Positions 48,050 through 55,076 of a stretch of 64,000 nt of DNA are shown in pieces. Under the pieces are notes generated by a model. That model did not search any database. It saw only the letters and a program-made list of their open reading frames with translations, and was not told the origin of the DNA. The stretch is from Pseudomonadota bacterium (lineage in GTDB: Bacteria; Pseudomonadota; Alphaproteobacteria; Micavibrionales; UBA2020). Each line of letters opens with the position of its first letter. Within the stretch, counting starts at the first letter, position 1. A program made the position numbers and the translations under genes. The stretch lies in NCBI GenBank assembly GCA_021805245.1, contig JAJZFS010000048.1, positions 5,536 through 69,535 of the forward strand, given 5' to 3'.

Positions 48050-48420
48050 CCTCAAACGCGCAAGCACGGGACAGACACTTTTGGCGTGCTTATTTTTTTC
48101 AGGTCAGCGGGATAAAACCATCGCCCTCGAAAGCTCAAACTATTCGCACAACAGCGCCAGTGCATGACAAAGCCGAGAACCGGGCGCAGGTTATTCCGAA
48201 TTGCATGCCGCACTCGTCAAAAGGATATTCCGGATCTCTCTTGAACCCGGAAGTCTTGTCAAGCGGCAGGCATACTTGAAGCAGGGAGGGGATAAGACTC
48301 CAAACGGGATCGCCCTTCATCGCGGCGGCCTGTATACCCCGCTGGCAAATCCCGTTTATATCGGGAAAGTGCGCCACAAAAAGCAACGTTATGGCGGGCG
48401 GCAGCCTGCCACGCACGGGA
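48050..48420 (+). pseudogene. Decayed serine-recombinase ('recombinase family protein') remnant
   Basis: Frame-broken pieces ..GQRDKTIALESS.., stop, ..ELHAALVKRIFRISLEPGSLVKRQAYLKQGG..LHRGGLYTPLANPVYIGKVRHKKQRYGGRQPA. They match the pattern A..VR.IF..YLELGS...L....G...F.RG.LY.LL.NP.YIGE..HKG..Y.G.H..I with deletions and a TGA. The catalytic domain is absent. Confidence 0.5.
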
Positions 48421-48429
48421 CAAAAGCGA

Positions 48430-48447
48430 TATTTTTCTATTTATTAT
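48430..48447. repeat. Left copy of 18-bp perfect direct repeat TATTTTTCTATTTATTAT
   Basis: Identical 18-mer to 54968-54985, checked base by base. Confidence 0.95.
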
Positions 48448-48820
48448 ACATTAACTTCAGCTGGGGATGCCTATTACCAGAATTGAACTCGCACTCATCG
48501 TTAAGGAAAGTTTGTAATTTCATAAGAATTTTCAGCGGTTTAGCAGAATCTAAGAGTAGATTTTCAACCGTTTCAGTCCCTCCGCTTGCCATCTCGCCAA
48601 GCGCTTCATACTCCTGAACACAGGTTGTCAATGTATCTATGCACAGCGCCGGACCAGCATACGGCCGCGATGAACTCGGACTTCTGTCGAGCGCAACATT
48701 TCCATTTCTTCGACAATGCACATGAATTTGACCATAGTCTGACTTACGTCAAGCCTTGGCTGGACGCATAAGGTTAATATACCCCCTGAAATACATCCAG
48801 GATAACCAAAAGCCAAATCC

Positions 48821-50185
48821 ATGAAGCAGATCGGAAACATAACAGCTGTTCACGGTCCTGTTGTGGTGGTGGCGTGTCAGGAATTGCCGCCTTTGCGTCG
48901 CGCATTGCTCGCCCGGCTCGATCATGAAAATTATCTTTTCGAGGTTCACCAGCACCTTGATGAAAATCACGTGCGCGCCATTACGTTGCATCGCAGCGCG
49001 GGACTGAGACGCTGGATGGAGGTCTACGACACCGGCGCACCGCTCCATGTGCCAGTGACGAAGGACTGTCTCGGGCGCCTGGTCAACCTTTTCGGCGCGC
49101 CACTCGACGGCAAGCCCCCGCTGGAAAAAAAGGAATTTCGCAACATTCACGGTGCCGGAGCAACGCTGGCCGACACCGTGCCCCTGTCCGGCATTCTCGA
49201 GACCGGCATCAAGGCGATCGACCTGCTCTGCCCTTTCGTGCGCGGCGGCAAGGCCGGACTCTTCGGCGGCGCCGGCGTCGGCAAGACGGTGTTGGTCATG
49301 GAATTCATGCATGCCGTTATCGCGTTGCACAAAGGCGTTTCCGTCTTCGCCGGCGTGGGCGAAAGGATCCGCGAAGGGCACGAGCTTTGGCATGCCCTGC
49401 AAGATGCGAGCGTGATGGACAAAACGCTCCTGGTCTTCGGCCAGATGGATGAATCGCCGGGCGTGCGTTTTCGTGTCGGCATGACGGCGCTCTCTTATGC
49501 GGAGTACCTGCGCGACACGCTGCGTGTGGAAGTTCTGTTTCTCATAGATAATGTCTTTCGCTTCGTGCAGGCGGGGAGCGAGATTTCAAGCCTGCTCGGC
49601 CGCATGCCGGCGACCGTCGGCTATCAGCCGACGCTTGCCACCGAGGTGGCGGAACTGCAAGAGCGCATCATCTCGACTCCGGCGGGCGCGATTACTTCCG
49701 TTCAGGCGGTTTATGTTCCCGCCGACGATATGACCGATCCGGCAGTGACCGCCATTTTCAACCATCTCGATACGACCGTAACCCTGTCGCGCGCGCAGGC
49801 GGCGAAAGGCTTTTACCCCGCCATCGATCCGTTGCGCTCAGGGAGCAAGGTGATGGACCGCCACTTCCTCGGCGACCGCCACTACGCGATCGCCGAAGGC
49901 GTGCGCGAGCATCTGGCGCGTTATCACGAGCTCGAGGACATCATCGCCATGCTCGGGCTGGAGGAATTGTCGCAAGCGGACCGCAAGATCGTCATGCGCG
50001 CCCGCAAGATCCAGCGTTACCTCACACAGCCGTTTTTCTCGACCGCGCAGCATACCGGCCTTCAAGGTACTACGGTGCCATTACAGGAAACGCTCGCCGA
50101 CTGCGACGACTTTCTGGCCGGAAAGTACGACGACGTTTCCGAAGACAAATGCTATATGCGCGGCGGCATGAAGGGGGCGGCATGA
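48821..50185 (+). CDS. atpD: Alternative (N-type) F1 ATPase subunit beta
   Basis: 454 aa; Walker [20 protein letters not shown], and [11 protein letters not shown] (the DELSEED region). It is the first gene of the operon, which is the N-ATPase order. Confidence 0.93.
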
Positions 50186-50592
50186 ACGGCTTTACGCTTA
50201 TCCTTCAGGACGCCACGCATACCGAACGCCTCAGTGATGTGGCGTCGTTCACGGGCGAGGATGCTTCCGGCAGCTTTGGCTTATTGGCGGGGCACGAACG
50301 GTTCATGACCTCCCTTGTTTTCGGCCTTGCGCGTTTTCGGGTTGCAGACCAGCCATGGCAATACGTCGCCGCGCCCGGAGCGCTGGTCTATTTCAACGGT
50401 GATGTCCTGACCTTGAGCACGCGCCGTTATTTGCGCGATGCAGATTTCACCCGCATCACCGCGCTCTTGGACAAACAGCTGGTGAAAGAGGAAGAAAATC
50501 TGCACGGCGTGAAACTGAGCTTGCAGCGCATGGAGGAAGAAATGATGAAACGGCTGTGGAAAATGGGCCGCGGGCAAGCGGCAACCTTATGA
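50182..50592 (+). CDS. atpC: F1 ATPase subunit epsilon
   Basis: 136 aa; ATGA overlap with the atpD stop; beta-sandwich plus helical tail pattern ([22 protein letters not shown]). Confidence 0.8.
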
Positions 50593-52578: not shown

Positions 52579-54035
52579 TGACAACGCTGTTGCAAAAGTG
52601 CGCCGACTGGCTGAAGGGATATCATTTCGCGCTCCGCATCACGGAACGGGGCAAGGTCGTTTCGGTCGGCGACGGCATCGCGTGGATCAAAGGATTGCCG
52701 TCCGCCGCCATAGACGACGTACTCTCTTTTACCGACGGCAGCCATGCCGTCGTTTTCGACCTTACGGACGAAATGATTGGCGCAGTGTTGCTGCATCAAA
52801 CGGAAAACCTGACGGCAGGCACGGAGGTTCATCTCCACGGCCGGCAACTGAGCATCGCTGCGGGAGACCAGTTGCTCGGCCGCGTCGTGGATTCGCTGGG
52901 GTTGCCACTGGACGGAAAGCCGCTGGACATCGCCGGCCATGTGCGCAGGCTGGACATTCTTTCGCCGCCGATTACCGCACGGGATTTCGTCAGGGAACCG
53001 CTTTACAGCGGCCTCAAAATCATCGATACGATGATCCCTGTCGGCAAGGGGCAGCGGCAACTGATTATAGGCGACATGGGGCTCGGGCGCAGCTCCATCG
53101 CCATTGACACGGTCATCAATCAAAAAGACAAAGACGTCCGCTGCGTCTACGTGCTGATCCGCCAGAAGCGCTCTGATGTGGTGAACACGCTTGAATTATT
53201 GCGCGCGCAGGGCGCGCTGGCGTACACGACCCTTGTCGTCGGCGAGGCGAGCGCACTGCCGGGGCTGGTTTATCTTGCGCCGTTTGCAGGCTGCGCGATT
53301 GCCGAGGAATGGATGGCGCGGGGGAAAGATACCTTGGTCGTTTACGACGATCTCACGGCGCATGCAGAAACTTACCGCGAATTGTCATTGCTCCTGCGCC
53401 GCCCTCCGGGGCGCGAGGCCTACCCCGGGGATATTTTTCATCTTCATGCGCGGCTGCTCGAGCGCGCAACCTGCCTGGCCAAAGAACAGGGCGGCGGCAG
53501 CATGACCGCGCTGCCCATCATCGAAACGCGGCAGGGCGAGATCGCTTCCTATATCCCGACCAATCTCATTTCCATCACCGACGGGCAGATCTATCTGGAT
53601 CAGGCCCTGTTCGCCGCGGGCTTTCGTCCGGCCGTCGATATCGCGCGCTCGGTCTCGCGCATTGGCGGCGCCGCGCAAAACAAGCGCATCAGCCATGAAG
53701 CCGGACGCATGAAGCTTGACTACCTGCAGTTTCTCGAATTGGAGATTTTCACGCGCTTCGGCACCAAGCTCGATCCGGCCATGGAGATGAAAATCCGCCG
53801 CGGGCGCATTTTGCGCGAAATCCTGAAACAGGATCGCCTGCATCCTTTGTCGGCCATCTATCAGCTGGCATGGATGATCGCCTTCAATGAAGGGCTCTTC
53901 GACGGTTTCGTGCCCGAGAACATCACCGCCATCATGGGGCTGCTCGAAAAAAAAGTCGGGATGTCAGGCCTGACGCTTGAAAGCGACCGCACTGACTGGG
54001 GGCAATCTCTCGCCGCCTGGCTGGGAAAGCCATGA
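52578..54035 (+). CDS. atpA: Alternative F1 ATPase subunit alpha (non-canonical P-loop)
   Basis: 485 aa; [26 protein letters not shown] is conserved. The P-loop reads GDMGLGRS where GDRQTGKT is expected. Confidence 0.9.
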
Positions 54036-54853
54036 CGAAGCGCCGCGAAGTCCTGAACCGGATCAAGACGCTCGGAGAAATCAGCGCCATCATGGGGGCG
54101 TTAAAAAACATCTCCACCATGGAGACGCGCAAACTCACGCGTTTTTTATCCAGCCAGCAGCAGGTGGTGGACAATATCGAGGATGCCGCAGCGGATTTTT
54201 TGCATTTTTACCCTCTTGATGCCGCCGTTGTGCTGCCGCCGTTGCACGTTGAGCTGCTGATCGGCTCCGAGCGCGGTTTTTGCGGCGATTTTAATACGGT
54301 CATTTTGCAGGGGTTCGAAAAACGGCGAAAAGACGGCACAGAGAAGGCTATCATTGTCGGGCGCAAACTTGCGTCGGAAATAATCCCTCTTTATCCTGAC
54401 ATGATCGCTCTCGCAGGCCCCGGTGTCGCAGACGAGGTGCACGCCATACTCGGCCCTCTTGTGGAGGCTTTAAACGATTTACGCCGCACGCACGGCATTT
54501 ATGCACTGACCCTTTGGTACCGCGACGACAAGGCGCCGCTGGGCGTGCGGAAAATACCGGTGCTGCCGCCCTTTGCGCAGGCGCATAAGCAGGATGTCGC
54601 GCAGGCTTTTCCGCCACGCCTTAATTTGTCTCCCGATCAATTTTTTGCCGAACTGGCCGACCATTATATTTTTGCTGTCCTGCATGCGGCCCTTTTTACC
54701 TCACTGATGACAGAGCATACGCAGCGCATCCACCACCTTGAGGGCGCCATACGCAAAATTGACGAACAGTCATCGACCTTGAAACAGAAAAGCAATCTTC
54801 TGCGTCAGGAGGAGATTACCGAGGAAATAGAAGAGATTATGCTTGGTGTATAA
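54032..54853 (+). CDS. atpG: F1 ATPase subunit gamma
   Basis: 273 aa; N-terminal ..[25 protein letters not shown] and C-terminal ..[16 protein letters not shown] coiled-coil ends are typical of gamma. Confidence 0.85.
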
Positions 54854-54967
54854 CACCACAAGAAATGCGTATCGCGTTCGCAAGGAACCCACGTACGCCG
54901 TAATCCTCTCAAGGACTTAATGCTCAAGCTGCCCGGACTGCCGAAAGCCGCCACTGAGAAAACTGGC

Positions 54968-54985
54968 TATTTTTCTATTTATTAT
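54968..54985. repeat. Right copy of 18-bp perfect direct repeat TATTTTTCTATTTATTAT
   Basis: Identical to 48430-48447. It ends 16 nt before the 3' end of tRNA-Val. Confidence 0.95.
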
Positions 54986-55001
54986 CAATGATTTAAGTAG
55001 G

Positions 55002-55076
55002 TGGTGCGCGATGAAAGAATTGAACTTTCTACCCCTGCTATGTCAAAGCAGTGCTCTACCAATGAGCTAATCGCGC
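55002..55076 (-). tRNA. tRNA-Val (anticodon GAC), CCA encoded
   Basis: Minus strand reads GCGCGAT TA GCTC ATTGGTA GAGC A CTGCT TTGACAT AGCAG GGGTA GAAAG TTCAATT CTTTC ATCGCGC ACCA. This folds by eye into a 75-nt cloverleaf with a 7-bp acceptor stem, a GG in the D-loop and a TTCAATT T-loop. Confidence 0.85.

Follow-up and report, generated by a model that had tools for sequence, protein, structure and literature searches.

Operons for N-ATPases have the gene order atpDCQRBEFAG, and atpR has been called the 'tell-tale sign' of the family (Dibrova, Galperin & Mulkidjanian 2010, PMC2881411). The criteria for membership include the full set of Na+ ligands in the c subunit, Q...ES(T)xxY, and the enzyme is always second to a canonical F- or A-type ATPase (PMC2881411). 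Operons which resemble these and have no atpR were reported from Nitrosococcus halophilus (PMC4154653) and, as the 'gammaproteobacterial-type' atpDCQBEF:HAG operon, from Methylacidiphilum (PMC6688271). Here an operon of eight genes, atpD-C-Q-B-E-F-A-G, is described from a stretch of 64,000 nucleotides (the window) of contig JAJZFS010000048.1 of an alphaproteobacterium (Micavibrionales, UBA2020; GCA_021805245.1), in which it lies between two copies of an 18-bp direct repeat beside a tRNA-Val(GAC) gene. A preliminary description of this stretch had stated that N-ATPase operons are laterally transferred, and this agrees with the literature, where they are described as 'highly mobile', as moved as a single unit, and as following the GC content of the host (PMC2881411). 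All positions are those of the window unless a relative is named, and the features are collected in Table 1.

The operon is best explained as occupying the tRNA-proximal end of a composite, decayed genomic island downstream of tRNA-Val(GAC), the 18-mer being the perfect core of an imperfect duplication of about 60 bp that would have arisen by att-type integration; the chances of this reading were judged to be about even. Islands associated with tRNA genes are tyrosine-integrase elements flanked by direct repeats of the tRNA 3' end, and the locus resembles them in several respects. The operon lies directly 3' of a tRNA gene, within a direct repeat which includes tRNA 3'-like sequence; it is absent at this locus from close relatives, integrase elements are found there in others, and the region has a mosaic structure built up in tandem.

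The 18-mer TATTTTTCTATTTATTAT occurs on the + strand at 48430-48447 and 54968-54985, as previously described, and nowhere else in the window, even when up to 2 mismatches were allowed. Six pairs of exact repeats of at least 18 nt (18-21 nt) are present in the window; this pair has 6% GC in a genome of about 60% GC, and the remaining five consist of coding words with 76-94% GC or are palindromic. When the two non-coding flanks of the operon (1111 nt and 148 nt) were shuffled 1000 times with preservation of dinucleotides, the longest common word had a mean of 8.5 nt and a maximum of 12 nt. The tail of this distribution drops approximately four-fold per base, giving by extrapolation a probability of about 1e-6 for a word of at least 18 nt. 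Twelve nucleotides was also the longest exact word common to both flanks in 45 other complete operons of the same type. Duplication of the 18-mer by chance is effectively excluded, as had been supposed from its length. Hardly any credence was given to the alternative that the pair is coincidental, or is an AT-rich word that recurs because of some function (as a terminator, a UP element or a binding site for proteins) with no role in mobility. The low complexity of the word, the presence of other exact repeats of similar length in the window and 59 occurrences in viral contigs of IMG/VR would be in keeping with it. The shuffled and control flanks, the lack of a third copy, the continuation of the similarity in register into a tRNA-like segment and the absence of the word from the flanks of the sister operon and from every relative speak against it. 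The IMG/VR occurrences are single matches in AT-rich contigs (median GC 0.32) with unrelated flanks; they are chance matches, and the word has no wider meaning. Elsewhere in the window a 22-nt AT-rich intergenic stretch at 8490-8511 matches part of the right repeat unit (TTCTATTTATTATCAATGATTT) at 86% identity (E ~0.02-0.05), which is probably a chance match of AT-rich intergenic words.

The repeat had been described as perfect and 18 bp long. The exact 18-mer is real, but the similarity is longer, extending over approximately 60 nt at 73% identity with one 1-nt indel (E ~4e-6). Beyond the 18-mer it runs rightward only, toward the tRNA, and it stops abruptly at the outer border of the 18-mer. 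When segments of the window were paired at random and scored in the same fixed register as a control, p for the rightward extension was ~3e-4 to 9e-4, and the leftward flanks of the two copies scored at the random median. An exact 11-mer, AGAATTGAACT, is found in both units, and in the right one it is the T-arm of tRNA-Val, the 3' end of which lies 16 nt from the right 18-mer as originally noted. The repeat looks like an att-type scar, since past the 18-mer it reproduces the tRNA-Val 3' end in degenerate form. Scanning with Rfam of the left repeat for a partial tRNA, and of the leader for a riboswitch, matched only the genuine tRNA-Val. No third copy of the repeat and no other fragment of tRNA-Val was identified at the older island boundaries (36548 and 41206) or elsewhere in the window. 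Independent assemblies of this population show the arrangement as well, with 99.99% identity, L001 and L003 covering both junctions and L002 the left one; an assembly artefact was rejected on the strength of this agreement.

The repeat pair had alternatively been proposed to be a target duplication. Transposition was rejected, there being no transposase and, as judged by eye and from the 25 longest inverted pairs listed, no evident terminal inverted repeats at the inner ends of the segment. Neither a length of 18 bp nor the one-sided extension to 60 nt suits a target-site duplication, and the right flank is the tRNA rather than a continuation of the recombinase gene found on the left.

The neighbourhood of tRNA-Val was compared with that of relatives, all uncultured alphaproteobacteria, which were fetched through the adjacent ABC transporter; six of them have this transporter beside tRNA-Val. 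In 6/6 the blastn homology to the window stops exactly at 55002, the 3' end of the tRNA, and the sequence after the CCA end is unique to each genome. The sister genome (SKS3.bin62, contig L004; ABC transporter 96% identical) aligns to 35130-41205 and to 55002-64000, is without 41206-55001 and carries 2.8 kb of unrelated genes instead. In L006 (89%) there are 573 bp between tRNA-Val and the equivalent of 36547, with homology resuming at 55002. The same breaks are present in L005 (88%), which has 4.8 kb of other DNA with a tyrosine integrase gene (L005 12205-13518) starting 237 nt past tRNA-Val. A tyrosine integrase gene also occurs in L007 (75%; L007 12305-13489), from 162 nt past tRNA-Val, and in L027 (70%) the core genes TrmFO, tRNA-Leu and trigger factor are located downstream of tRNA-Val. 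Because homology breaks at 55002 in six relatives and tyrosine integrases are found there in two, this clade has a true hot spot of integration in the 3' flank of tRNA-Val. No distal tRNA-Val repeats were identified within the DNA fetched for the integrase-bearing relatives. In L007 a 44-nt copy of the 5' half of tRNA-Val (11989-12032) is located just upstream of the intact gene.

On another contig of the sister genome (L083), a tRNA-Ser(TGA) gene at 2111-2200 is followed about 1 kb downstream (~3160-3215) by a direct repeat of approximately 50 nt of its 3' half. The pair encloses a PIN-domain toxin gene and a gene for 102 amino acids and is a textbook mini-island; the tRNA-island process therefore operates in this lineage.

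The whole variable region 3' of tRNA-Val (36548-55001) is a mosaic accumulated at this gene. Within it, the genes at 41617-47709 form a stress and regulatory module with a GC content of 0.45-0.52 and a GC at third codon positions (GC3) of 0.53-0.64, against a GC3 of 0.75 in core genes, and this module is older island content. The operon, at about 60% GC, abuts DNA of about 47% GC (41.6-47.4 kb), which suggests that the two are of separate origin. This sharp compositional break bears on the proposal that the 13.8 kb from 41206 to 55001 came as one composite island and that the 60-nt repeat is internal to it, for example as the junction of two tandem islands acquired together. Such a history was considered distinctly unlikely. 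It has in its favour that the sister is without exactly this segment at tRNA-Val, and that the two parts may be functionally linked, to judge from a Crp/Fnr-family regulator in the low-GC part and FNR-like boxes at 44713-44726 and in front of atpD. Besides the break in composition, no repeat or tRNA fragment is present at the 41206 boundary, and modules similar to the low-GC one, traced by way of Crp-family regulator homologues, are present in other organisms with neither ATPase nor recombinase nor tRNA. The 2.8 kb of other genes in the sister could, moreover, reflect replacement instead of a single insertion.

The DNA just left of the repeat-bounded segment is also decayed. A degraded serine-recombinase gene had been noticed just left of the left 18-mer, and this was borne out by a frameshifted match to PF07508 (26.4 bits, cut-off 21.1; profile positions 3-64 of 102, ~48204-48389). 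Only an internal piece remains, as the upstream catalytic domain was not detected and the C-terminal third is missing; neither the fragment nor the 47.7-48.8 kb region matched plasmids. The position of the fragment against the left repeat recalls elements mobilized by large serine recombinases, but it is frameshifted, internal and outside the segment bounded by the repeats. Serine recombinases exchange at a 2-bp core and leave no direct repeats of 18-60 bp. The fragment is most likely an unrelated relic.

According to the favoured reading, a circular DNA carrying the operon would have integrated Campbell-style at an att-like site just past tRNA-Val by a crossover within the 18 bp of perfect identity, probably catalysed by a tyrosine integrase like those that persist beside tRNA-Val in relatives. 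The insertion would have pushed the older low-GC island and the dead serine-recombinase fragment away from the tRNA. With the integrase since gone from the cassette, the segment would now be a fixed, probably immobile, att-flanked remnant.

A number of observations weigh against this reading. The tRNA-like part of the distal repeat consists of one 11-mer and scattered matches, is only ~60% identical and has a p value of ~1e-3. The exact identity block lies 16 nt outside the tRNA, an atypical geometry when compared with the classic tRNA-Ser repeat of the sister. The recombinase gene next to the left repeat is truncated at random, which points to a reshaping of this junction by deletions. Between the repeats (48448-54967), where a tRNA island would carry its integrase, no integrase, excisionase or transposase was identified, only atp genes and an orphan open reading frame (ORF). 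The sister is without 13.8 kb and not 6.5 kb, so that the cassette was never seen to be present or absent alone. The cargo is native in composition: the operon has a GC content of 0.54-0.60 and a GC3 of 0.62-0.74 (core GC3 0.75 +/- 0.08), and its codon-usage distance falls within the core range. Its divergence from the sister copy is similar to, or slightly above, that of core genes. The identities of the subunits to those of the sister are 99% for c, 91% for beta, 91% for Q, 90% for a, 87% for alpha, 75% for gamma, 74% for epsilon and 68% for b, compared with 83-96% for the flanking core proteins (83-91% DNA identity for core genes). These values equally fit long residence in the lineage followed by relocation, or independent acquisition from related donors.

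Nor was any product of excision observed. The predicted empty site is GGGACAAAAGCGA + 18-mer + CAATGATTTAAGTAGGTGGTGCGCG and the predicted circle GAGAAAACTGGC + 18-mer + ACATTAACTTCAGCTGGGG; neither junction was present in the population contigs, all 9 of which are occupied. A degenerate pattern which allowed any pairing of flanks around the 18-mer, and thereby covered the observed, empty and circle junctions, gave 0 matches in the JGI metagenomes. Because the pattern included the observed junctions and still matched nothing, the organism is apparently outside this collection. The evidence on mobility is limited, and a lack of mobility is not proven by the junction searches.

The attL/attR interpretation first offered for the repeats thus gained the tRNA-like extension, the hot spot and the absence of the operon from the sister locus, and lost ground on the missing integrase and on the geometry. 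The further proposal that the repeats define a 6.5-kb mobile unit was not upheld: the sister differs by the larger segment, no integrase is encoded within, and no relative offered an empty site with a single 18-mer. The native-like composition of the operon had been named in advance as grounds for rejecting that proposal.

The closest AtpD (91% identity) is encoded by the same sister genome, on contig L083 and not at tRNA-Val. The operon there lies in low-GC, lineage-specific DNA, preceded by genes for Kup, a KdpD-like kinase and response regulator, HSP20, a flavin reductase and an ATPase zeta inhibitor, and followed by two CBS-domain genes and HSP20; tRNA-Lys(CTT) is 4.8 kb off, beside RecJ. 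The DNA common to both copies of the operon is limited to 48715-54846 (81.8% identity), that is the genes and about 106 bp of promoter, and ends 285 bp and 122 bp short of the two 18-mers. The operon of L083 has no flanking repeat, and the 18-mer is absent from its flanks and from every relative. Contig L150, from the same sample as L001, is likely to be the counterpart in the window genome of the Kup/kinase locus; it continues into unrelated genes and has no ATPase. A third relative has a tyrosine integrase and tRNA-Ser at the Kup/kinase locus. The next-closest operons (83% and 82%) are in yet other contexts with no tRNA nearby. In a survey of 80 metagenomic loci of this operon type, 45 of them complete, a tRNA gene was located within 3 kb of the operon in 1/45 complete loci. 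The 18-mer or a comparable flanking repeat, which the preliminary description had proposed to look for at other N-ATPase loci, was found in 0/83 related operon loci (12 nt being the longest repeat in the complete ones).

These comparisons bear on a further alternative, in which the repeats are the relic of an earlier, integrase-bearing island and the operon came separately, by homologous replacement, internal deletion or rearrangement, or relocation within the genome; the repeats would then not delimit the unit that carried it. This was regarded as unlikely, though less so than the other alternatives. It accounts for the fact that the DNA shared with the sister ends well inside the repeats, and for the 285 bp of unrelated orphan sequence that separate the left repeat from the promoter. 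The native composition and core-like divergence of the operon, the decay of the region (truncated recombinase, truncated response regulator) and the occurrence of related operons in many contexts without repeats are also in line with it. It requires two events where one suffices, however, and the operon fills the interval nearly exactly, with 391 nt before atpD and 114 nt after atpG. Furthermore, no other island cargo or integrase pseudogene was recognised between the repeats (by Pfam, NCBIfam and homologue searches of the orphan stretch; the 114 nt after atpG were not separately searched).

A more far-reaching proposal is that the 6.5-kb segment is a non-autonomous, integrase-less hitch-hiker cassette, in which the 18-bp core and the tRNA-like arm serve as attP for a tyrosine integrase encoded elsewhere in the genome, and that the complete operon moves in this way from one tRNA-linked site to another, as from or to tRNA-Val here and the tRNA-Lys region of the sister. 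This was considered highly improbable; if true, the mobility of N-type ATPase operons would for the first time have a defined vehicle.

The locus is best regarded as an ordinary decayed tRNA-linked island and not as a newly defined mobile element. Islands linked to tRNA genes and bounded by direct repeats are textbook, and the mobility of N-ATPase operons with host-like GC has been known since 2010 (PMC2881411). In the literature searched, no att-flanked N-ATPase island is described, and the locus is therefore a new example. The mobility of these operons has long been noted, yet their vehicle is undefined; the locus offers a concrete case of such an operon in DNA with att-like flanks at a tRNA hot spot, and two sister species carry it at different tRNA-linked loci. 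Were excision demonstrated, the locus would explain how an ion pump can be transferred as an entire operon. As the repeat occurs at no other operon of this type and is idiosyncratic to one species, it provides no general account of N-ATPase mobility.

Table 1. Features of the window around the atp operon and tRNA-Val(GAC)
Feature	Position	Strand	Basis or remarks
Whole variable region 3' of tRNA-Val	36548-55001		blastn breaks against L005 and L006
13.8-kb segment lacking at this locus in sister L004	41206-55001		blastn: nothing aligns between 41205 and 55002
Low-GC stress/regulatory module	41617-47709		Pfam: Ysc84, OmpA, Gly-zipper, CsbD, YceI, PAS histidine kinase, truncated response regulator, Crp/Fnr-family regulator, helix-turn-helix (HTH) protein
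Decayed large serine recombinase fragment	47990-48429	+	Frameshifted; outside repeat-bounded segment, abuts left 18-mer
Left, tRNA-distal repeat unit	48430-48489	+	18-mer 48430-48447, 17-nt spacer, degenerate copy of last ~26 nt of tRNA-Val including AGAATTGAACT
Orphan 94-aa ORF	48437-48721	-	Occupies most of leader
Operon promoter/leader	48715-48820	+	blastn homology to L083 from 48715; promoter-like site; FNR/FixK-like box
atp operon, atpD-C-Q-B-E-F-A-G (eight genes)	48821-54853	+	Pfam, NCBIfam, gene calls
atpD	48821-50185	+	
atpC	50182-50592	+	
atpQ	50589-50864	+	
atpB	50867-51562	+	
atpE	51559-51825	+	
atpF (b-delta fusion)	51835-52578	+	
atpA	52578-54035	+	
atpG	54032-54853	+	
Right, tRNA-proximal repeat unit	54968-55026	+	18-mer 54968-54985, 16-nt spacer, genuine tRNA-Val 3' end
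tRNA-Val(GAC)	55002-55076	-	ARAGORN; Rfam 67 bits; 3' end 16 nt from right 18-mer

The operon had been announced as a complete N-type operon, which was an overstatement, because the hallmark gene atpR (PF12966) is absent; with 2 nt separating atpQ from atpB there is no space for it, and no AtpR match was obtained in Pfam or NCBIfam scans. AtpQ was identified by PF09527 (39.9 bits, cut-off 26.6). AtpF, of 247 amino acids, combines PF00430 (residues 7-134) with the OSCP domain PF00213 (residues 170-240), and there is no atpH gene. In the c subunit, helix 1 contributes Q and helix 2 E-S-L-A-I-Y, Leu replacing the Thr of the ESTxxY motif. All matches to the NCBIfam models of the alternate F1F0 ATPase (TIGR03305, TIGR03324, TIGR03322, TIGR03321 and TIGR03323) are below the curated cut-offs, with scores against cut-offs of 588/752 for beta, 541/750 for alpha, 106/131 for c, 122/225 for b and 60/282 for gamma. 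Even so, the subunits match these models best or nearly so, as would suit a sister clade. No second atp operon was identified in the window.

The operon shares with the N-ATPases the collinear order, beginning with atpD-atpC, of the eight genes present, AtpQ, the lack of a separate delta gene and a long b subunit with a delta-like C-terminus, and the picture at this locus matches the account of the family as mobile and as following the GC content of its host; it differs from them in lacking atpR (1/9 genes) and in the Leu for Thr of the c subunit (PMC2881411). Gene content and order are identical to those of the operons of N. halophilus and Methylacidiphilum, including the b-delta fusion and the absence of atpR, and the AtpD of N. 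halophilus is 74% identical to that of the window. The reports on those operons (PMC4154653, PMC6688271) describe no tRNA adjacency or flanking repeats, in which the present locus differs. Since the hallmark atpR is lacking, the operon was assigned to this known atpR-less, N-like clade. A gap between atpQ and atpB of at most 12 nt, with no space for atpR, was found in 58/63 related atpDCQBEFAG loci; the atpR-less clade is common in metagenomes though it is without the gene used to define N-ATPases. By analogy with the family, the product of the operon is presumably an accessory, ATP-driven pump for export of Na+ or H+.

Between the two copies of the 18-mer, nothing had been reported except an AT-rich leader and the eight atp genes. 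The genes stand, but the leader of approximately 370 bp is composite, consisting of the tRNA-like piece, the orphan ORF and a promoter region of ~106 bp which is conserved with the sister operon. The orphan ORF has no Pfam or NCBIfam match, its sole match among 1.84 billion representatives is spurious (a repeat protein), and it is probably not a gene.

Upstream of atpD an FNR/FixK-like box, cTGACttacGTCAA, was identified at 48739-48752 (TTGAC-N4-GTCAA, one mismatch in the window). It is located 82-83 nt upstream of atpD both here and in the sister operon (L083 ~9918-9931); in L086 such a box is found 131 nt upstream of atpD. An exact box (44713-44726) lies between the YceI and PAS-kinase genes, and the gene for the Crp/Fnr-family regulator (46640-47401) is 1.4 kb upstream of the operon. 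Exact FNR-like boxes are modestly enriched over 73 related loci (5.5% versus 1.1% in controls). The operon promoter may be under the control of a Crp/Fnr-family regulator.

In the low-GC module, the response regulator at 45958-46221 has 87 amino acids, against 154 in a homologous module (L236), and is followed by a gap of 420 bp; this truncation is a sign of decay. A perfect palindrome of 20 nt, GATTGAAAATATTTTCAATC, at 47723-47742 is located directly upstream of a gene of the Cro/C1-type HTH family (47422-47709, - strand) and is probably its operator.

Related operons are repeatedly flanked by genes for HSP20, CBS-domain proteins, Usp and the ATPase zeta inhibitor (L083 7120-9414 and 16482-18927; L238 3506-5858), and these small stress-type genes may indicate a functional neighbourhood that recurs. 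A solo atpD with 81% identity to the window copy was found beside CBS and Usp genes in L238 (6253-7635) and L239 (3208-4590), with no other atp gene called downstream; it appears to be the degenerate remnant of an operon in another organism.

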